DNA of 24,000 nt. Source: an uncultured bacterium. Its GTDB lineage: Bacteria; Chloroflexota; Chloroflexia; Chloroflexales; Kallotenuaceae. The number at the start of each line of letters is the position of its first letter. Position 1 is the stretch's first letter. Positions 2,303 through 23,365 of this stretch are shown here, piece by piece. Position numbers and translations under genes: made by a program. The DNA lies in the NCBI GenBank assembly GCA_963827625.1, contig CAWHBS010000003.1, positions 806,306 to 830,305 of the forward strand, in the 5' to 3' direction. The notes under the pieces are model-generated. The model did not search any database. It had not been told where the DNA came from and saw only the letters and a list, made by a program, of their open reading frames with translations.

Positions 2303-3736
2303 ATGCAAGCATTGCAAAGCCCGGCGGACATTCGTGACTTCTTCTTGGGCAACCAAACTCCACTCTACTATGTCAGCACCTCGACGTTTAACCTTCTGGG
2401 GGCGGATGCTTGGATCAAGAACCTGTCATTTATCAACACTATCAATAGCTTTGCCGGCCAACATCCCAACGTGTTTGTACCGGATGACGCGCTGGTTCAT
2501 GGTCTGCAAAGGATTGAAGCGGCCAACAATTATCTGCTCAATCACCCGGCAGTCGCCGATTTTGTTCGCAGCTCGGGCTCGGGCGGCGTGCTCATGCTAA
2601 TGTTTGATGCGCTTACAGAAACACTCGCCCGGAATCTGGGGCTGACGGTAGCCTTCCCCTCCGCCAAACTACGCCATTGGCTTGATAACAAGCTGACAAC
2701 TACACGTCTGGCCGACCAGGCCGGTATTCCATCCGTACCGCATGTTCTGGCCAGGGTCGACAGCTACGCCGCCCTGCGCCGGGCCGCGGACGCACTGGGG
2801 CCGGATCTGGTCGTCCAGTTGCCGCACGGCGATTCCGGGACGACCACCTTCTTCATCTCCACTGAGACTGACTTTCTCGGCTATGCCGGGCAGATCGCCG
2901 AGCAGCCCGCCGTCAAAATCATGAAGCGGATTCGCTGCCGGCAGGCGACGATTGATGGTTGTGTCACCCGCTATGGCACGCTGGTCGGGCCGTTGATGAG
3001 CGAGTTGATCGGGTTTGCCGAATTGACACCCTACCGCGGCGGCTGGTGCGGCAACGAGGTCTTTGGCGCCGGTGCATCGGCGGTCTTTCCTCCAACGATC
3101 CGCCGGCAGGCGCACGACGCCGCGGTGGCGGTCGGCGAGCAGATCCGGCGCCAGGGCTACTGGGGCTGTTTCGGCCTCGACTTTCTGATCGACCAGGACA
3201 CGGGAGCGCTGTATCTGGGCGAGTTGAATCCGCGTATCACCGGCGTGACGGTGCTGACGAGCCAGGTGGCCCTGGATCAGAGCGAGGTGCCGCTGCTGCT
3301 CTTTCACCTGTTGGAATGGCTTGGGGTTGGCTATGTGCTGGACGTCGAGCAGTTCAATCGACGGTGGGTCGACGCCGAACAGGTGATGGGTTGGAGCCAG
3401 TTGATTATCGAGCACCTCGAGGATGCGGAGGAGATCGTGACCCACGTTCCCGCAACCGGCATCTGGCGCATGGAGCCCGAAAGCACGGTGCAGTTCTCAC
3501 GGCCGGCGTTTCAGCCGCAGGCCGTCGCCAGTGACACCGAGGCGTTCTTTCTGCGCACGGTCGATCCTGGCCACGTGCCGGGCCGGGGCCAGTCCGTCGG
3601 CCGGCTGCTGACGCGTGGCCGCCTGATGACCGACGATTACCGGCTGACCGAGCGGGCCAAAGCGTGGATCCGCGGCCTCAGGGCGCACTTTGCTGCTGCA
3701 CACGTAGCGCACAACCCAAGCTCGGCAGATGACTAA
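2303..3736 (+). CDS. ATP-grasp family ligase (carboxylate-amine ligase-like) with N-terminal pre-ATP-grasp region
   Basis: ATG at 2303 follows GACGAGG. ATP-grasp signatures are LVVQLPHGDSGTTTFFI, GYWGCFGLDFLID and the Mg/ATP loop YLGELNPRITGVT. The product is 477 aa. Confidence 0.85.
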   Translation: MQALQSPADIRDFFLGNQTPLYYVSTSTFNLLGADAWIKNLSFINTINSFAGQHPNVFVPDDALVHGLQRIEAANNYLLNHPAVADFVRSSGSGGVLMLMFDALTETLARNLGLTVAFPSAKLRHWLDNKLTTTRLADQAGIPSVPHVLARVDSYAALRRAADALGPDLVVQLPHGDSGTTTFFISTETDFLGYAGQIAEQPAVKIMKRIRCRQATIDGCVTRYGTLVGPLMSELIGFAELTPYRGGWCGNEVFGAGASAVFPPTIRRQAHDAAVAVGEQIRRQGYWGCFGLDFLIDQDTGALYLGELNPRITGVTVLTSQVALDQSEVPLLLFHLLEWLGVGYVLDVEQFNRRWVDAEQVMGWSQLIIEHLEDAEEIVTHVPATGIWRMEPESTVQFSRPAFQPQAVASDTEAFFLRTVDPGHVPGRGQSVGRLLTRGRLMTDDYRLTERAKAWIRGLRAHFAAAHVAHNPSSADD

Positions 3737-5561
3737 GCGAACCACGACGGCCGGCGGCCAGACTGGCCAGTCCAGGCGGCCCTCCACCTTCGCGGTGTTC
3801 CGCAGGCGCAATTTCACCCTGCTATGGATCGCCCAGTTCATCTCGACGATGGGCAGCGGCCTGACAGCGATCGCCAGCTCCATCCTCGTCTACCGGATGA
3901 CCGGCTCGGCGTTAAGCGTCGGCCTGATGATGCTGGCGACGGCGTTGCCTGGCCTGTTTGTGGGCCTCATCGCCGGTGTGTTCGTCGACCGATTTGACCG
4001 CCGGCGCATCATGATCGCCGCCAATCTGATCTGTGCTGCCCTCGTTGCCGCCATCCCCGTCGTGCTGCCGTTCGGGATCGGCTGGCTTTATCTCGTCGTC
4101 GTGCTCGCCAGCTCGGCGGGACAGTTCTTCGCGCCGGCGCATACCAGCCTGCTGCCTGAGATCGCCCCCGACGAGGAGCTGGCCGCGGCCAATGCGATGA
4201 TGACTATCAGCCAGTTCGGCGCGCTGACGGTTGGCTACGCCGGTGCGGGCCTGATCGCCACCTTAACCACGATTGCGTGGGCGTTCTACCTGGACGCAGT
4301 ATCGTTCCTGCTCGCGGCGCTCTGCATTCTGCTGCTCCACGTCGCGCCGCGCAACGTCAAGGGAGCGACCAATCTCGCTGCCGTCGCGCATAACCTGCGC
4401 ATCGGGCTCGTCTTCGTCCGCGACATGCCGGTGCTCCGCTCGCTGGTGCTCGTCTTTGTGCCGATCTTTATCAGCTATGGCTTTGGGAACGCGCTGTTCC
4501 TGCCGTTCGCGATCCGTGCGCTCGGCGCGACCGCGTTCGAGTACAGTCTGCTGGAAGGGCTGTTCACGGTCGGCTTTGTCGTCGGCAGCCTGTTGATGGC
4601 CGGCCTGGCCGATCGCCTGCACGAGCAGCAATGGATCACCATCAGCATCCTCGGGATGGGGCTGTTCAATGTCGCGCTGGCACTTGCGTGGTCGGTGCCG
4701 GCCGCGATCGCGTTCAGCGCGATGGTTGGTTTGCTCAACGCGCCGTCGTACATTGGACGCCAGCTGCTGATTCAGCGCACCACGCCGCGTGAGATGCGCG
4801 GCCGCGTCAGCAGCATGTTTCTGGTCACCCGCGATACGGGTTTCATGCTCGGCATGGCGGCGGCGGGCCTGGCCGACTTGTTCGACGTGCGCATGCTGCT
4901 GCTGGTAAATGCGGTGCTGTTGTTCGGCTGTGGCCTCCTGTCGTTCATCCTCCTGGGGCACGGCCAATCGATTGACGAGCGGCGCCGCGTCCCGGCCATG
5001 CTGCGCGCCGCGCCCGGGCCGGGGCTGGGCCGCGCGGCACTCCTGGCCGACATCGATCGACTGGCCATGCATTTGCCCGCTCTCGCGCACTTCAGTCGCC
5101 AGGAACGGCTAGCGCTGGCGGCACAGACGCGGGTCTATGACGCGCCCGCCGGCACAGCGATTGTGCGGCAGGGTCAGCAGAGCGATGCGACCTATTTCTT
5201 GCTCGACGGGCGAACCGTTGCGAGTTGTGTGGATGAGGGCGCCGTGCGGGTGCTCGAGGTCCATAACGCCGGCGACTTCTTCGGCGAGATCGCTGCCTTA
5301 ACCGGCATGCCGCGCACGGCCAGTGTGCTCACCACGCAGCCGACGACGGTGCTGCAGATGCCGGCAGCCGCGCTCCGGGAGCTTACGCGTGACCCACAGA
5401 TCAACCGGGTATTCCTGAGCAAGCTGTCGGAGCGCATGGAGCGGCTGCGGCTCATCGCGCTGCCGGGCTTCGGCGGCCACGACCAGGAGCTGCTGCGCGA
5501 GTTACGCACGCCCGCCGCGCAGGCGACGTCAGAAGGGCCTCCGGTGCCTGCCGCGAGCTGA
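3729..5561 (+). CDS. MFS transporter (EntS/MFS_3-like exporter) fused to a C-terminal cyclic-nucleotide-binding (CAP/cNMP) domain
   Basis: The ATG overlaps the ATP-grasp stop by 8 nt (ATGACTAA). There are about 12 predicted TM helices and the DRFDRRRIM loop typical of MFS_3. The C-terminal roughly 130 aa contain the FGEIAALTGMPRTASV phosphate-binding-cassette motif of cNMP-binding domains. Confidence 0.9.
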   Translation: MTKRTTTAGGQTGQSRRPSTFAVFRRRNFTLLWIAQFISTMGSGLTAIASSILVYRMTGSALSVGLMMLATALPGLFVGLIAGVFVDRFDRRRIMIAANLICAALVAAIPVVLPFGIGWLYLVVVLASSAGQFFAPAHTSLLPEIAPDEELAAANAMMTISQFGALTVGYAGAGLIATLTTIAWAFYLDAVSFLLAALCILLLHVAPRNVKGATNLAAVAHNLRIGLVFVRDMPVLRSLVLVFVPIFISYGFGNALFLPFAIRALGATAFEYSLLEGLFTVGFVVGSLLMAGLADRLHEQQWITISILGMGLFNVALALAWSVPAAIAFSAMVGLLNAPSYIGRQLLIQRTTPREMRGRVSSMFLVTRDTGFMLGMAAAGLADLFDVRMLLLVNAVLLFGCGLLSFILLGHGQSIDERRRVPAMLRAAPGPGLGRAALLADIDRLAMHLPALAHFSRQERLALAAQTRVYDAPAGTAIVRQGQQSDATYFLLDGRTVASCVDEGAVRVLEVHNAGDFFGEIAALTGMPRTASVLTTQPTTVLQMPAAALRELTRDPQINRVFLSKLSERMERLRLIALPGFGGHDQELLRELRTPAAQATSEGPPVPAAS

Positions 5562-6429: not shown

Positions 6430-8616
6430 TTAGAGCTCGATATCGATGGTTGGCTCGCGCCAGGCCAGCCAGACGAAGCGCACTACGATCGCCGCGGCGA
6501 CTGCCGCACTGCCGAAAAATAGGAAAAATGCGATGCTCGAAAGGCGTACGCCGGCAAGCTCGGCAGGAATAGTTGTGACGATGGCGGAGCCGATCAGCAT
6601 GCCTGCGAGCAGCAAGCCAACCAGGGCGCGGCTGATATTGAGCGAAAGGCTGGCATCGAACTTATCGACCTCGCGCCCCAGCTCGCTGGTATCGATGCGC
6701 AAGCTTAACTGCCCACGCTCGTACTGCTCGACCCATTTGAGCGCTGCATCGCTCAAGGATGGAATGCGCCGCACCAGCTCCTTGCCGGTCCGCACGACTT
6801 GCTGGCGCACCAACCGCATCACCGTGTCCGCGTCGAGCTCCTTACGCAACAGATCCTTTACTTCGGCAAACGCTGCCACCACCAGATCGCGCGACGGATC
6901 GAGCGTATGTACGATCTCTTCGGCCTGGACCAATGCCTTTAATGCGAGCGTCAGATCGCTCTGCAGGCGGAGCCCGGCGCGCCGCATTGCCTCGAATGTG
7001 TCGGCCAGTACGCCCGACAGGTTGGACGACTGGTCCGCGAAAAGCTGGTAGCGCTTCATCAGCCGTTCCAGATCGGCGATGAATGCGCCCTCGTTAACCT
7101 GCCGCTTGAAGGGCGTGCTCAGGCGCATAATTGTCTTGGCCAGGTCATAGCCGTCCCGGTCATTGATCCCCCAGAGCAGGTCAATCAATGCCATGCGATG
7201 CTCCGAGGTGAGGCTCCCCATCAGGCCCATATCGATGAAGACGATCGTGCCGGTGTCGAGGTTGACGAGCACGTTGCCGGGGTGCGGATCGGCGTGAAAA
7301 AAGCCGTCGATCAAGATTTGCTGGAGCATCGCTCGAAGGAACTCTGTGGCGAGTGCGGGCAGGTTGATGCCCGCGGCAGTAATCTCGGAAACGTCGGTTA
7401 TCTTCACCCCACGTACAAACTCCTGGGTCAGAATGTGCCGGCCGCTCAGCTCGGGGTAGGCGAGCGGAATATGGATCGTTGGGAACGTGCTCATGTTAAT
7501 GGTCAACATACGCATATTGAGCAGCTCGTTCTCGTAGTTGAGCTCGAGAGCAATATTGGACGCGAACTCGTTCACCACGCCACTCAGGTCAGCCTCGCGC
7601 GCCCAGGTGCGGCGACGCTGAACCTTCGCGGCCAGGTCGCGCATGACGTTCAATTCGGCGCGTACGGTCACGTCGATGTCGGGCCGCTGTACCTTGACGA
7701 CAACCGGCGTGCCGTCGACCAGCGTCGCGCGATGCACCTGGGCCGTTGAGGCCGCTGCGAACGACTCGTGATCGAAGCTCGCGAACGCCGCTTCCGGCGA
7801 TTGGTCCAGCTCGCGCTGGACGATCCGTGCTGCCTCCTCGTAGGGAAACGGCGCTACATCACTCTGGAGCCGCTCGAACTCGGCGCGCCAATCCTTCGGC
7901 AGTACCTCGGCGCGGCTGGCCATCATCTGCCCACACTTCACAAAGGTCGGGCCGAGCTCCTGCAGGAGCAGGCGGACTTTGGCGGGTGTCGTCTCTGCGC
8001 TCAAGGTCTGCTTGCCCGGGTAGAGCAGCTGCTGCATCAGCAGACGGAAGCGCGCCAGGGGAGTCAGATCGATCGCTACGTCCTTGGTATAGCGAATGAT
8101 CAGCTGCGAAATCTGGGCGACGCGCAGATTTTCAACAACCCGGTTGCGTCCACCAGACCCTAACCATCCCAGCCAGCGCCAGTAAAAACGGGTCTGCGGC
8201 ACGTCGCTGATGACCGGACTGTCGAGGCCGAAGACCGCCTCCATGACGGGCAGCGCCAGCAGCAGAACGGAGCTGATCAGCAGAATCCACAGCCAGGCCG
8301 GCGTTGCGACAGCAAAGGCGGGTTGGAGGAACGTCACCAACAGCCAGAACAGCACAGAGTTTAGCGTCACGACGTAGACTGGAATCGACACGAGCAAGAA
8401 GCGCGCGGTGAAGAGCACGATCACGGGCCGGATCACCTCGTGCAGCAACCCGTACACCAGGCCGAGCACAACATACACCACGCCCAGCGGCAGCTGCGGC
8501 GACGGCGAGCGGACGTCGATGCCTGGCGTCAGCGCCACAACGACCGCCAGCGTGAGTGCAGTGACAAGCAAGCGAATTAAGCTGGTACAACATAGGATTG
8601 GCGGTCCCTTCGTCAT
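6430..8616 (-). CDS. ABC1/UbiB/AarF atypical protein kinase family protein with extra N-terminal 4-TM (phage-holin-4-like) module and C-terminal TM helices
   Basis: ABC1 core motifs are FVKCGQMMASRAEVLP, FAAASTAQVHRA, VVVKVQRPDI and FHADPHPGNVLV. The N-terminal roughly 160 aa are four hydrophobic helices. The C-terminus (VGLLLAGMLIGSAIV ... FFLFFGSAAVAAAIVV) gives two more TM helices. Confidence 0.9.
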   Translation of the reverse strand: MTKGPPILCCTSLIRLLVTALTLAVVVALTPGIDVRSPSPQLPLGVVYVVLGLVYGLLHEVIRPVIVLFTARFLLVSIPVYVVTLNSVLFWLLVTFLQPAFAVATPAWLWILLISSVLLLALPVMEAVFGLDSPVISDVPQTRFYWRWLGWLGSGGRNRVVENLRVAQISQLIIRYTKDVAIDLTPLARFRLLMQQLLYPGKQTLSAETTPAKVRLLLQELGPTFVKCGQMMASRAEVLPKDWRAEFERLQSDVAPFPYEEAARIVQRELDQSPEAAFASFDHESFAAASTAQVHRATLVDGTPVVVKVQRPDIDVTVRAELNVMRDLAAKVQRRRTWAREADLSGVVNEFASNIALELNYENELLNMRMLTINMSTFPTIHIPLAYPELSGRHILTQEFVRGVKITDVSEITAAGINLPALATEFLRAMLQQILIDGFFHADPHPGNVLVNLDTGTIVFIDMGLMGSLTSEHRMALIDLLWGINDRDGYDLAKTIMRLSTPFKRQVNEGAFIADLERLMKRYQLFADQSSNLSGVLADTFEAMRRAGLRLQSDLTLALKALVQAEEIVHTLDPSRDLVVAAFAEVKDLLRKELDADTVMRLVRQQVVRTGKELVRRIPSLSDAALKWVEQYERGQLSLRIDTSELGREVDKFDASLSLNISRALVGLLLAGMLIGSAIVTTIPAELAGVRLSSIAFFLFFGSAAVAAAIVVRFVWLAWREPTIDIEL

Positions 8617-12764: not shown

Positions 12765-12801
12765 TTGACTTTGCGTCATAAGTACACTATCATGATAGTG
12801 T
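12765..12801 (+). promoter_or_regulatory. Sigma70-like promoter (TTGACT-17 nt-TATCAT) overlapped by a perfect 18-bp palindromic operator
   Basis: TTGACT lies at 12765-12770 and TATCAT at 12788-12793. The palindrome ACACTATCATGATAGTGT lies at 12784-12801. The region is AT-rich in a GC-rich background, 25 nt upstream of the J-domain gene ATG. Confidence 0.5.
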
Positions 12802-12825: not shown

Positions 12826-13902
12826 ATGGCCGAGACAGTCTTGGATCCGTTCGACCTATTACGCCGGGCAATCTGCCCCGAGGACGTTTTTGGCCTTCTG
12901 GTTGCCGATACGCAGGACACCCTCAAGCAGCGGTATCGGGAGCTCGCAGCGGTTGTGCACCCGGACCATAACGCGGATCGGCGCCAGGAGGCGACTGAGG
13001 CATTTCACGCACTTCAGCATTGGTACGGCGCCGCCCAGGAGCAGCTGCGGCGGGGCAGTGATGCTGCGCCGCCACGCATCACTGCCGCCTCTCGGCTGCA
13101 CACGTATCGCGGCTATGCACCACCCCTCACGGGTGACCTGAGTGACCTGTTTCCAGTCCAGCTCGACAGCAGCCGCGTGCTGCTCAAGGTTGCGCGTCTT
13201 GCCCGCGACAACGACCTGCTCCACGCAGAAGCCCGGACGCTGCAACGCCTCGATCGCGTGCTGCAGGGCCAGGCGGTGCGCGCGCACTTTCCCACTCTCG
13301 TCGAAGACTTCCTGCTCGCCGACGTGACGGGCAGCCGGCGGCAGGTTAACGTGCTGAGCGAGGAGGTCAGCTGTGTCTCACTGATGGACGTGATCAGGGC
13401 CTATCCTGCCGGCATCGCGTCGGGCGACGCCGCCTGGATGTTCAACCGCATGCTCGCCGTGCTGGGCGTGACGCATAATCTCGGCATTGTGCACGGAGCG
13501 CTGGTCCCGACGCACGTTCTGATCCGGCCTGGCGACCACAACGGGATGCTCGTCGACTGGTGCTACAGCGTCCCGGCCGGCGAGTCGCTGAAGGCCATCA
13601 GTCCGCAATTTGCCGACTTCTACCCACCGGAGGTACTCGAACGGCGGCCCGCCACCACCGCGACCGACCTGTATATGGCTGCGCGCTGCATGGTGCGGCT
13701 GCTGGGCGGCACGCGGGGCACGCGCGACCTGCCCGCCGGCGTGCCGCGCCCGATGCGTGCCCTGCTCGACGCCTGCCTGATCCCGGCGCCCGCGCGACGG
13801 CCTGACGACGCCTGGCAGGTTCTCGATGATTTTCGGGAGATCCTCGCACGGCTGCACGGACCAGCGGTATTCCGGCCGTTCCACATGCCCGCGCCGGCCT
13901 AG
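12826..13902 (+). CDS. J-domain (DnaJ-like, HPD motif) protein fused to a protein-kinase-like fold lacking the catalytic Asp (pseudokinase)
   Basis: The J-domain reads LKQRYRELAAVVHPDHN ... EATEAFHALQHWYG, with HPD at 12958-12966. Kinase-fold landmarks are VLLKVAR (VAIK-like Lys), HAEARTL (alpha-C Glu), HGALVPTH in place of HRDxKxxN (HGA at 13492-13500), DWC in place of DFG, PPE in place of APE, and the TDLYMAARC and ARRPDD subdomains. Confidence 0.85.
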   Translation: MAETVLDPFDLLRRAICPEDVFGLLVADTQDTLKQRYRELAAVVHPDHNADRRQEATEAFHALQHWYGAAQEQLRRGSDAAPPRITAASRLHTYRGYAPPLTGDLSDLFPVQLDSSRVLLKVARLARDNDLLHAEARTLQRLDRVLQGQAVRAHFPTLVEDFLLADVTGSRRQVNVLSEEVSCVSLMDVIRAYPAGIASGDAAWMFNRMLAVLGVTHNLGIVHGALVPTHVLIRPGDHNGMLVDWCYSVPAGESLKAISPQFADFYPPEVLERRPATTATDLYMAARCMVRLLGGTRGTRDLPAGVPRPMRALLDACLIPAPARRPDDAWQVLDDFREILARLHGPAVFRPFHMPAPA

Positions 13903-13947: not shown

Positions 13948-14937
13948 ATGGGACACTCAAACTGGAGCGACGCCGCCTACCAGGCGCGCCAGCAGCACCG
14001 CCGCGCCACCGGCCAGACCGCCTTCAGCTACGACGACCAGGTGCGGACTACGGGTGTGGTCCGAGTCCACGACAAGCTGAATCCGCGCGGTGTGACGCGC
14101 GAGAGCCGGGACAGCAATCAGCACCCGGCGTCCCTCGCGATCGCCGTGATCTTCGACGTCACGGTTCGATGGGCAGCGTGCCCCGCGTGTTGCAGACCAA
14201 GCTGGGCGCGCTGATGCGGGTGCTTGATCCAGCACGGCTACGTCGCGGACCCGCAGCTCCTGTTTGGCGCGATCGGCGACGCGAACTGTGACGCCGTGCC
14301 GCTGCAGATCGGCCAGTTCGAGTCCGGGCTTGAGATGGACGATGATCTGGGCAAGATCTACCTGGAAGGCGGCGGCGGCGGCCAGGTCCAAGAAACCTAC
14401 GAACTGGCGCTCTATTTCCTCGCTCGCCATACCGCGATCGACTGTTATGCGCAGCGTGGCAAGAAGGGGTACCTGTTCACGATCGGCGACGAGCAGCCAT
14501 ATGCTGTTGTGAGCCGCCAGCACGTTCGGGCGCACATCGGCGATGCGCTGGAGCGGGATATTCCGGTTCAGCAGATCATTGCAGAGGTGCAGCAGCGTTA
14601 CGAATACTTCCATATCATCCCGACTGACACCGCACATGGACGGAGCCAGGCCGTGCAGGCGCGCTGGAAGGAACTGCTGGGCGAGCGGGTGCTGCTGTTG
14701 CACGACGCCGCGGCCGTTTGCGAGACGATCGCCCTGGCGATCGGGCTGTGCGAAGGGTCGGTGGACGATCTTGCCGGCGGAGCCGACGATCTCCGCGACG
14801 CCGGCTATGGCAGCGCCGGCGTGGCAGCCGCCGCCACGGCGCTGGCTCACTACGGGGCAAGCCGCGCACCCGTGCTGCGGCTCGCCGCAGGGCTGTTGCC
14901 GGCGAGCACGGTGCAGGTCGCCGACGGACGGCTCTAG
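13948..14937 (+). pseudogene. von Willebrand factor A (vWA, MIDAS) domain protein; frame interrupted by a 1-nt deletion and a 1-nt insertion about 60 nt apart (true pseudogene or assembly error)
   Basis: ATG at 13948 lies 7 nt after GGAGA. Frame 1 reads ...LAIAVIFDVT and then hits TGA at 14212. The alternate frame from 14163 reads GSMGSVPRVLQTKLGALMRVL. Frame 1 resumes at 14227 with IQHGYVADPQLLFGAIGD. Joined, these give a canonical DxTGSMG MIDAS motif and a continuous vWA fold (YLFTIGDE). Confidence 0.75.
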
Positions 14938-23107: not shown

Positions 23108-23365
23108 TCAAGATCCGTCAGCTTCCGGTGTTGCCAGCTCTGCCGCTGCGGCAGCCGGTACGACCGGCGTCGACTTCGCAGCCGCCGGCAGCACCAGTTC
23201 CCTCAAAAAAGCAAACAACGCCTCCAGATCGGCGAAGCGGTGCGGCGCTGCCGCATCAGCCGCCTGCAAGGAGGCATGCCACGGTCCGTTGCCGTCGCGC
23301 CACAGGCGCAACAGATACACGCGATAGCTTTCCGCGTTCTGCAGGTCGCTGCTCAAGCTCGTCAT
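23108..23365 (-). CDS. Small hypothetical protein (85 aa) with YRVYLLRLWR...WHASL...FADLEALFAFL motif
   Basis: I prefer the internal ATG at 23365, which follows GAAAGG. It lies 77 nt upstream of the giant gene on the same strand. The motif resembles small unannotated proteins I recall from Chloroflexota and cyanobacteria. This is memory only, not a search. Confidence 0.6.
   Translation of the reverse strand: MTSLSSDLQNAESYRVYLLRLWRDGNGPWHASLQAADAAAPHRFADLEALFAFLRELVLPAAAKSTPVVPAAAAAELATPEADGS

Follow-up and report, generated by a model that had tools for sequence, protein, structure and literature searches.

Several described proteins share features with the subject of this report, a gene in a 24,000-nt stretch (hereafter the window) of contig CAWHBS010000003.1, from an uncultured Chloroflexota bacterium of the Kallotenuaceae. 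The gene encodes an N-terminal J domain joined to a domain of protein kinase fold. GAK (auxilin-2) has an active N-terminal kinase, a C-terminal J domain and clathrin-binding regions, and the oncogenic chimaera DNAJB1-PRKACA ('J-PKAc', PDB 8fe5) ranked 16th in a Foldseek search with the predicted structure of our protein. Both likewise combine a J domain and a kinase fold in one polypeptide. However, in J-PKAc the fusion is somatic and the kinase active, GAK and J-PKAc are unrelated to our protein as fusions, and both keep the HRD Asp. A parallel for the second domain is found in JAK JH2 (HGN), MLKL (HGK) and STRADalpha, nucleotide-binding pseudokinases in which the HRD Asp is replaced and the fold serves as a switch or scaffold. 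These proteins also retain the beta3 Lys and the alphaC Glu, and STRAD chains (2wtk and 3gni) were among our PDB matches. They function in eukaryotic signalling, whereas the family described here is encoded by bacteria and phages, is fused to a J domain and keeps the DFG Asp in a DW[CS] motif.

For the partner genes, the closest systems are NorQ/NorD, CbbQ/CbbO (MoxR-type) and the Mg-chelatase subunits BchI/BchD, in which a von Willebrand factor A (vWA) adaptor and an AAA motor remodel a specific enzyme. The closest systems for the whole protein are class C J proteins such as Rki of phage RB43, which likewise consist of an N-terminal HPD-containing J domain and a specialised non-DnaJ domain. 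Rki is a small ORFan protein that engages the host DnaK and acts on sigma32 (PMC3486835), and a 2026 review (PMC13254874) counts 49 unique class C J proteins from phages, of which 48 lack any further known domain. Unlike in Rki, the second domain here is a kinase fold, and the gene has two fixed partner genes. In the literature library that we searched, we found no description of this trio. With middling confidence, we interpret the protein as a class C J-domain co-chaperone whose kinase-fold module binds a client or partner, and which is encoded in a self-contained operon with a vWA-like protein and a remodelled PurA-family ligase. Class C co-chaperones are a known kind of protein; what is new is the pseudokinase targeting domain, and its place within an uncharacterised, widespread trio common to bacteria and phages.

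The J domain is recognisable by sequence and by structure prediction. Residues 22-67 match the Pfam DnaJ model (PF00226) with an E value of 2.5e-7 and 31.1 bits, above the gathering cut-off of 27.8, and a profile of 54 family members matches over 20 J domains of known structure, among them those of DNAJB8, DNAJB6 and E. coli DnaJ (best E value 2.6e-7). The HPD tripeptide (residues 45-47) is unchanged in all 121 sequences of a set comprising the query and 120 close relatives 53-99% identical to it, and K34, R36 and R38 of helix II are conserved among them. AlphaFold2 (AF2) predicts helices at residues 8-14, 18-22, 30-44 and 50-76. The model score, the HPD motif and the helical hairpin with a basic helix II are all as in a J protein. 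The motif is less uniform further away, with HPD in 99 of 149 distant representatives, HED in 15 and HAD in seven, the others being mostly truncated.

The C-terminal domain is most readily identified by its fold. An AF2 model computed on the family alignment (mean predicted local distance difference test, pLDDT, 88.9; predicted template modelling score, pTM, 0.76) gave at least 2000 Foldseek matches in the PDB, essentially all of them protein kinases. Those of highest rank, at E~1e-10, were AAK1, PknB, Aurora A and TNIK; for the first three, TM-scores normalised to the target were 0.66-0.77. At the sequence level, the Pfam Pkinase model (PF00069) matches residues 165-295 with an E value of 1.8e-5 and 24.8 bits, under its gathering cut-off of 31.7, and the family profile matched StkP, CaMK1 and the pseudokinase STRADalpha in the PDB only marginally. 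In the 121 aligned sequences, K121 (the beta3 Lys, in LLKVAR) and E135 (the alphaC Glu) are invariant, and H223-G-A-L-V-P-T-H230, D281 and R324-R325 are invariant or nearly so; the domain also has a PPE (APE-like) motif. D244-W245-C246 is near-invariant, with D244, the DFG Asp, kept in 116 of the 121. The position of the HRD Asp is occupied by A225, and that of the catalytic-loop Asn by His230 in 120 of the 121. Instead of a Gly-rich GxGxxG loop there is GDLSDLF (residues 103-109; family pattern GD[LIV]x[DN][LV][YF]).

These substitutions extend over a large family. The kinase part alone, searched against 1.84 billion cluster representatives, retrieved 763 clusters (50% identity) below E=1e-30, most of them proteins of 340-390 aa in which the kinase part starts at around residue 90-120. 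The 149 distant representatives have HGA[VI]xPxH as catalytic loop and DW[CS]Y[SA] at the DFG position. Eight diverse members aligned by hand have Ala or Ser in place of the HRD Asp, never Asp itself, and the same is true of the close relatives, the 149 distant representatives and the phage homologues, groups that retain the Lys, the Glu and the DFG Asp. Thus, the site, which has lost the catalytic base, is an old, selected one of pseudokinase type rather than the outcome of local decay. Four hallmarks of active kinases are lacking, namely the HRD Asp, the catalytic-loop Asn, the Gly-rich loop and a Pfam score above cut-off, while the bilobal fold, the beta3 Lys, the alphaC Glu and the DFG Asp are present. 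Judged by its sequence, the domain is a pseudokinase by the usual definition. Nucleotide binding or a non-canonical reaction is possible, as the three residues holding Mg-ATP (Lys, Glu and the DFG Asp) are invariant.

A sequence-only reading of the window had proposed a J domain, its HPD intact, fused to a kinase fold that keeps its scaffold residues (a VAIK-like Lys, the alpha-C Glu, an Asp and an Arg), in which HRD has become HGA, the loop Asn is lost (HGALVPTH) and DFG has become DWC. It named profile searches and structure prediction as the check for both domains. The two domains passed this check, and the scaffold residues (K121, E135, D281 and R324-R325) and all three substitutions are conserved in the 121 sequences. 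The family thus defined, currently labelled 'serine/threonine kinase' or 'molecular chaperone DnaJ', really consists of J-domain/pseudokinase fusions.

The retained residues also bear on a different interpretation, in which the kinase-like domain is an active, unconventional enzyme that modifies DnaK, the vWA-like protein or the PurA-like protein, with the J domain merely positioning it. It might be a low-activity, substrate-assisted kinase, or a transferase forming nucleotidyl or acyl-phosphate products as in SelO and SidJ, with for instance the C-terminal carboxylate or tail of the vWA-like protein as target. The invariance of the beta3 Lys, the alphaC Glu, the DFG Asp and the catalytic-loop His/Asn across the 763-cluster family exceeds what a pure scaffold would need, and a mycobacteriophage orthologue retains the canonical Asn (HGAITPDN). 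However, the catalytic Asp is missing in every member examined, no conserved acidic residue nearby could substitute for it and the Asp of a DHNG motif varies. The Gly-rich loop is degenerate, and the NCBIfam match to a pseudokinase related to SidJ (E=0.027), which would fit such an enzyme, is weak and not significant. We regard this interpretation as unlikely.

The co-chaperone interpretation draws much of its content from the gene neighbourhood. The J-pseudokinase gene opens a three-gene operon in which it is followed by the vWA-like and PurA-like genes. The promoter listed in Table 1 is the only strong promoter-like site before the trio, the next one, at 16323, being just past the third gene, and a TTGACT...TAnnnT arrangement is conserved upstream of the Chloroflexota orthologues. 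The same order of genes was found in all eight Chloroflexota loci with enough flanking sequence; a ninth (L009 in our numbering of the loci fetched for comparison) ends inside the vWA-like gene and was left out of this count. These loci span Oscillochloris, Roseiflexaceae, Ardenticatenaceae, Anaerolineae and others, and orthologues from different classes of the phylum are 52-65% identical. The trio is also present in five distant members with ~40% identity (L012, L018, L019, L020 and L021), of which L019 is from a Bacteroidota metagenome-assembled genome; other carriers include unassigned metagenomic contigs. No gene of the window beyond the trio is conserved near the related loci. Thus, the trio is a conserved, mobile module.

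Table 1. Positions of the features discussed, in the window unless a locus (L) is named
Feature	Position	Strand	Basis or remark
Sigma-70-type promoter of trio operon, TTGACT-17 nt-TATCAT	12765..12793	+	10/12 positions matched
Operator site 1, TTGCGTCATAAGTACACTA	12771..12789	.	One mismatch to T[AT]GTGT-N7-ACAC[TA]A; fills -35/-10 spacer
Operator site 2, TAGTGTTATCGTGACACAA	12796..12814	.	Perfect GTGT-N7-ACAC core; over likely transcription start, just past -10
J-domain/pseudokinase protein gene	12826..13902	+	ATG start, 358 aa open reading frame
J domain, ~residues 8-78	12847..13059	+	HPD at nt 12958-12966; basic helix II K34/R36/R38
Kinase-fold domain, ~residues 85-352	13078..13881	+	Foldseek kinases E~1e-10 and residue conservation
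Catalytic loop HGALVPTH	13492-13515	+	
DWC (DFG position)	13555-13563	+	
vWA/MIDAS-like partner gene, 329 aa when intact	13948..14937	+	Alignment to L011; fold of 91%-identical homologue
Divergent PurA-family enzyme, 452 aa	14961..16319	+	Pfam Adenylsucc_synt 1.3e-62
Intact vWA-like gene of 99%-identical strain	L011 11123-12112		
Ronan gp258 (vWA-like) with intein	L013 7086-8870		Weak Hint/Intein_splicing matches
RHph_TM39 locus	L014 1-1245		vWA-like/PurA-like pair
TDDLMA locus	L015 1-1423		vWA-like/PurA-like pair
J-less kinase-like protein	L017 6001-8028		C-terminal peptidoglycan-binding fusion
AAA-type module	L021 279-4778		
AAA-type module	L022 2442-11032		
AAA-type module	L023 2132-8488		
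AAA-type module	L024 2277-8470		
MFS transporter fused to cyclic-nucleotide-binding domain	3729-5561		610 aa
ABC1/UbiB-type atypical kinase	6430-8616		728 aa
1500-codon open reading frame	18609-23111	-	Weak FG-GAP and GbpA_2 matches

In the window, the vWA-like gene is disrupted by a 1-nt deletion in a G run (14163-14164) and a compensating 1-nt G insertion 58 nt further on, at 14222. A stop codon arises at 14212-14214, and the DVTGSMG sequence of the metal ion-dependent adhesion site (MIDAS) is out of frame. The reference used to locate these indels was a strain 99% identical (L011), in which the gene is intact. As L011 itself has several split genes, for instance that of an MFS/cyclic-nucleotide-binding protein, the frameshifts are probably an assembly artefact rather than a sign of pseudogenisation.

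The vWA-like protein has no sequence match in Pfam, NCBIfam or the PDB, curated vWA models included, and the one family that it matches is phrog_2971 (unknown function). For a homologue 91% identical to it, AF2 gave a model of moderate confidence (pLDDT 67, pTM 0.72). Fold searches with it retrieved integrin beta-I and alpha-I domains, NorD (NorQD structure 9qhe_G) and the vWA structure 4fx5, with E values of 2e-5 to 4e-4. On the strength of this model, the product of the middle gene has a vWA Rossmann-like fold. The MIDAS motif D-V-T-G-S is invariant among the homologues, 120 of which are 69-91% identical. An EGGGGGQ loop is invariant as well. The proteins of each subfamily start with 'MG' in 116 of 120 cases, a feature kept in the phage versions, the N-terminus being MGxSxWS in proteins of the J-type modules and MGGGG in those of the AAA-type modules described below.

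The third gene codes for a member of the PurA family that is neither the housekeeping PurA nor PurZ, both identities being ruled out by curated cut-offs and by the loss of the aspartate loop. It scores 171.1 bits against a cut-off of 402 for NF002223, 139.5 against 395.6 for TIGR00184 and, for PurZ (NF038379), 32.9 against 300. In E. coli PurA, D13, K16, H41 and Q224 serve in phosphotransfer, and T300, T301, R303 and R305 form the loop that binds L-aspartate. Alignment with this enzyme shows that D13, K16, H41, Q224, T239 and D333 are retained, the D13, K16, H41 and Q224 columns being invariant. In contrast, the aspartate loop reads D-W-Q-Q-G-F here (family motif W-Q-G-x-F-R), and K331 is replaced by C or H, T129 by C and R143 by H. 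Thus, the fold and the phosphotransfer residues are those of PurA and PurZ, whereas the aspartate loop and the scores differ. To judge from these residues, the enzyme probably still performs an NTP-dependent activation of an oxo group, with another nucleophile. As its amino-acid substrate site is replaced, its product is probably not adenylosuccinate. The module exposes a PurA-family enzyme with a remodelled substrate site.

The sequence-only reading had named vWA and PurA-like proteins as the partners. Both are genuine and strictly co-conserved with the J-pseudokinase gene; the PurA-like assignment rests on a strong Pfam match, and the vWA assignment is borne out by the fold and not by sequence models. 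The same reading had noted that dnaK is absent from the window, and we likewise detected no Hsp70 signature motif in its 24,000 nt. Regarding its broader interpretation, the domains, the pseudokinase state and the partners stand, while the role as a DnaK adaptor receives indirect support, through the AAA-containing sister modules presented below. The phage homologues, the altered substrate site of the PurA-like enzyme, the frameshifts in the vWA-like gene and the conserved operators go beyond that reading, which had overlooked them.

The module is also found in phages. Tblastn searches of phage genomes identified all three proteins in 201 mycobacteriophage records of Bixzunavirus (cluster C), and these are true homologues encoded in the same order. 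In phage Ronan, gp257, annotated 'serine/threonine kinase', is 37% identical to our protein over 95% of its length and keeps the HPD, HGA and DWC motifs; gp258 ('hypothetical protein') is the vWA-like protein, and gp260 is annotated 'PurA-like adenylosuccinate synthetase'. In contrast to our assignment, the phage annotation names the first protein as an active kinase and does not mention the J domain. Its catalytic loop, HGAITPDN, differs from that of the window in having the canonical Asn. In PHROGs, the trio proteins fall into phrog_3043 ('kinase'), phrog_2971 ('unknown function') and phrog_1211. The gene of Ronan gp258 contains an intein, with a Cys...Asn-Cys insertion in the KGY-LFTIGDE strand, while other cluster C phages have an uninterrupted vWA-like gene of ~270 codons.

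The vWA-like and PurA-like genes also occur as a pair without any kinase-like gene, in Rhizobium phage RHph_TM39 and Vibrio phage TDDLMA, and this pair is the core of the module. A Met/Gly-rich protein is encoded upstream of the pair in both phages. In TDDLMA, the pair is near genes for an anaerobic ribonucleotide reductase; in RHph_TM39, it is near phosphoribosyltransferase-like and nicotinamide mononucleotide (NMN) adenylyltransferase/NUDIX genes. The RHph_TM39 neighbours point to NAD/ADP-ribose metabolism, as do the operators discussed below.

This distribution raises the question of whether the module originated in phages as a means of taking over the host or countering its defences, the Chloroflexota copies being domesticated or derived from prophages. 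It might then refill adenine-nucleotide or NAD-related pools depleted by defence systems, for which the RHph_TM39 neighbourhood would be a suitable setting, or hijack DnaK as RB43 Rki does. Phage J-domain proteins that hijack DnaK are indeed known (PMC3486835; PMC13254874), and the 201 mycobacteriophage records, the intein in a phage vWA-like gene and the phage-like contig L012 would also agree with a phage origin. L012 is phage-like by its gene arrangement alone (small co-directional ORFans), as a PHROGs scan of the neighbouring genes did not confirm a phage. However, the window and the related bacterial loci have ordinary chromosomal neighbours without phage hallmarks, and the 52-65% identity of Chloroflexota orthologues that share a promoter and operators suggests that the module has long been inherited vertically and regulated by its hosts. 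We consider a phage origin unlikely, and since it concerns origin it would be compatible with the co-chaperone mechanism.

We also considered that the trio might be an anti-phage defence system, with the kinase-like protein as a sensor and the PurA-like enzyme as an effector that alters nucleotide pools, given that defence systems commonly use nucleotide-modifying effectors. The kinase domain has matches in PADLOC-DB v2 (MkoA, 9e-13; mad6; PD-T4-6) and to an NCBIfam MAD6 kinase model. We dropped this assignment, as the matches reflect generic kinase-domain similarity in the first gene only, and neither the vWA-like nor the PurA-like protein has a match in PADLOC-DB v2. In addition, the proteins evolve slowly, as illustrated by the narrow identity range of the vWA-like homologues, the trio lies among housekeeping genes outside any recognisable defence island and lytic phages carry it too. 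A defence function thus seems highly improbable.

A clue to what the J-pseudokinase contributes comes from modules in which it is replaced. Genomes of Myxococcales, Planctomycetes and Patescibacteria encode a sister module of five genes, whose products are, in order, a protein of ~227 aa, an AAA ATPase of the classical type (600-670 aa), the vWA-like protein, a protein of ~310 aa and the PurA-like protein. In L021, an AAA-vWA-like-PurA-like set directly adjoins a J-type trio. The presence of an AAA ATPase in place of the J-pseudokinase supports, without proving, the idea that an ATP-driven remodeller, DnaK, is provided through the J domain. There is a resemblance to NorQD-type pairs in the MIDAS/vWA adaptor and in the AAA ATPase of the sister modules. 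In contrast to those pairs, the motor of the J-type modules would be Hsp70, recruited in trans by the J domain; moreover, the AAA protein of the sister modules is a classical one (PF00004) rather than MoxR, and the vWA-like protein falls outside all Pfam vWA models. Hsp70 with its J protein and a dedicated AAA ATPase may therefore be interchangeable motors for one vWA-enzyme pair.

The other components of the sister modules vary. The ~310 aa protein has a pyruvate-kinase-family Pfam match in L024, and in L022 a protein of 1453 aa contains both the PurA-like domain and a Big_5 domain. We ruled out that the ~310 aa protein is a homologue of the pseudokinase without the J domain, as it does not match the family hidden Markov model.

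The sister modules and the strict linkage also speak to the alternative offered by the sequence-only reading, namely that the kinase fold is itself remodelled by Hsp70. The fold would then be an Hsp70 client in cis, folded or switched by DnaK, and the neighbouring genes would be merely co-regulated. In favour of this idea, eukaryotic kinases are classic Hsp70/Hsp90 clients. Nevertheless, it leaves unexplained both the linkage of the three genes across phyla and phages and the existence of AAA-containing modules, and we judge it very unlikely.

The C-terminus of the vWA-like protein offers a second link to the motors. Among 120 proteins of the J-type modules, 88 end in DGRL, the penultimate residue is R in 108 and the last one is L in 98, and in all eight kinase-linked lineages examined the protein ends in RL (xRL-COOH). 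We dropped the notion that an xRL tail is specific to kinase-linked versions, since AAA-linked proteins, which have a Lys-rich tail ending in GR[ILVF](F) or WKL, show a similar G-R-hydrophobic end. The tail is missing from the vWA-like proteins of the two phage lineages that have neither a kinase nor an AAA partner. In this comparison of a small number of independent lineages, the tail thus follows the presence of an ATPase-recruiting partner and not that of the kinase fold. The disordered tail is a candidate handle for an ATPase or a chaperone.

The architecture of the protein, the conservation of its motifs, the linkage of the genes, the AAA-type modules and the pattern of operators are observed; from these we infer the following mechanism, from the recruitment of DnaK and the identity of its client to nucleotide gating, NrtR control and physiological output. 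The pseudokinase domain would dock on a complex of the vWA-like and PurA-like proteins, with possible gating by nucleotide in view of the invariant Lys, Glu and DFG Asp of the Mg-ATP site. The HPD-containing J domain would then trigger ATP hydrolysis by the housekeeping DnaK, which might remodel, load or release the complex using the C-terminal tail of the vWA-like protein (G-R-hydrophobic-COOH) as a handle. DnaK would thereby perform the task that falls to the dedicated AAA ATPase in the sister modules and to MoxR-type ATPases for other vWA proteins. Two NrtR-type operators probably repress the operon and ADP-ribose would relieve this repression, tying the module to NAD or adenine-nucleotide stress. 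In the simplest reading, the J domain outsources the motor to the housekeeping DnaK and the pseudokinase provides the docking specificity. The role of the kinase fold as an adaptor between Hsp70 and a partner protein is supported indirectly, by the AAA-bearing sister modules. If this is correct, bacteria and phages would provide an example of a pseudokinase that serves as adaptor for Hsp70. Genetically tractable models are available in the Bxz1-like phages, with M. smegmatis as host, and in cultured Oscillochloris; locus L004 comes from O. trichoides DG6.

Several points weigh against this co-chaperone interpretation. The J function is deduced from the HPD motif and the rest of the sequence, and the ~15% of distant representatives with HED or HAD would be expected to stimulate DnaK more weakly, suggesting that J function is not universal across the family. 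The invariance of the Mg-ATP ligands is as compatible with an unconventional enzyme as with a switch. The AAA-type modules hold two additional genes and are hence not simple one-for-one swaps with the J-type modules, and the tail motif of the vWA-like protein could dock on the PurA-like enzyme instead. A further point comes from L017, in which a J-less kinase-like protein is encoded after the vWA-like and PurA-like genes, implying that the kinase fold has a role independent of Hsp70. Finally, the assignment of the operators to NrtR is a well-supported lead, built on the motif core and on two gene adjacencies. The L017 gene lies on a 458-kb contig, where it adjoins M15 peptidase/peptidoglycan-binding (endolysin-like) and deoxynucleoside monophosphate kinase-like genes.

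The operators in question are two 19-bp palindromes, one on either side of the -10 box. The operators described for NrtR are palindromes of 21 bp built around a GT-N7-AC core; ADP-ribose releases the regulator, and Roseiflexus is among the bacteria with an NrtR regulon (PMC2330246). The two tandem sites upstream of the trio have this core, as do operators of the NrtR regulon. At the position of site 1, L001, L003, L006-L008 and L010 have counterparts with a perfect GTGT-N7-ACAC core, and an operator-bearing promoter precedes the trio in L001, L003, L006-L011, L018, L019 and L021. The strict core occurs 18 times in 290 kb (the window and the fetched loci), against ~4 occurrences expected by chance. 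Seventeen of the 18 lie immediately ahead of the trio or, in L018, of the nrtR gene before it, usually in tandem with a spacing of 25-26 bp. In L018, nrtR is located before the trio; in L019, an nrtR gene encoding NUDIX and WHD_NrtR domains is the fourth gene of the cluster and a site lies upstream of the J-pseudokinase gene. Together, the operators and the adjacent nrtR genes hint at ADP-ribose/NAD-linked control. NrtR with ADP-ribose is thus a plausible regulator, which makes these questions directly testable.

A more speculative possibility, which we hold to be decidedly unlikely as a whole, is that the vWA-like and PurA-like pair forms the core of an undescribed ATP/GTP-driven system common to bacteria and phages. 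The PurA-like enzyme, devoid of its Asp site, would join an intermediate of the 6-phosphoryl-IMP (inosine monophosphate) type to another amine. The candidate amine would be that of the glycine invariant at the N-terminus of vWA-like proteins; alternatively, a new nucleotide would be formed. Hsp70, brought in by the J-pseudokinase, or the AAA ATPase would engage the G-R-hydrophobic tail to load, reset or release the complex. The module would be induced by ADP-ribose through NrtR upon depletion of NAD or adenylates, and phages would have captured this response.

Other features of the window were noted in passing. An MFS (major facilitator superfamily) transporter fused to a cyclic-nucleotide-binding domain and an ABC1/UbiB-type atypical kinase, the latter with an N-terminal holin-like region of four transmembrane segments, are unrelated to the trio. 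Downstream of the operon, the 1500-codon open reading frame on the reverse strand overlaps several long open reading frames on both strands.

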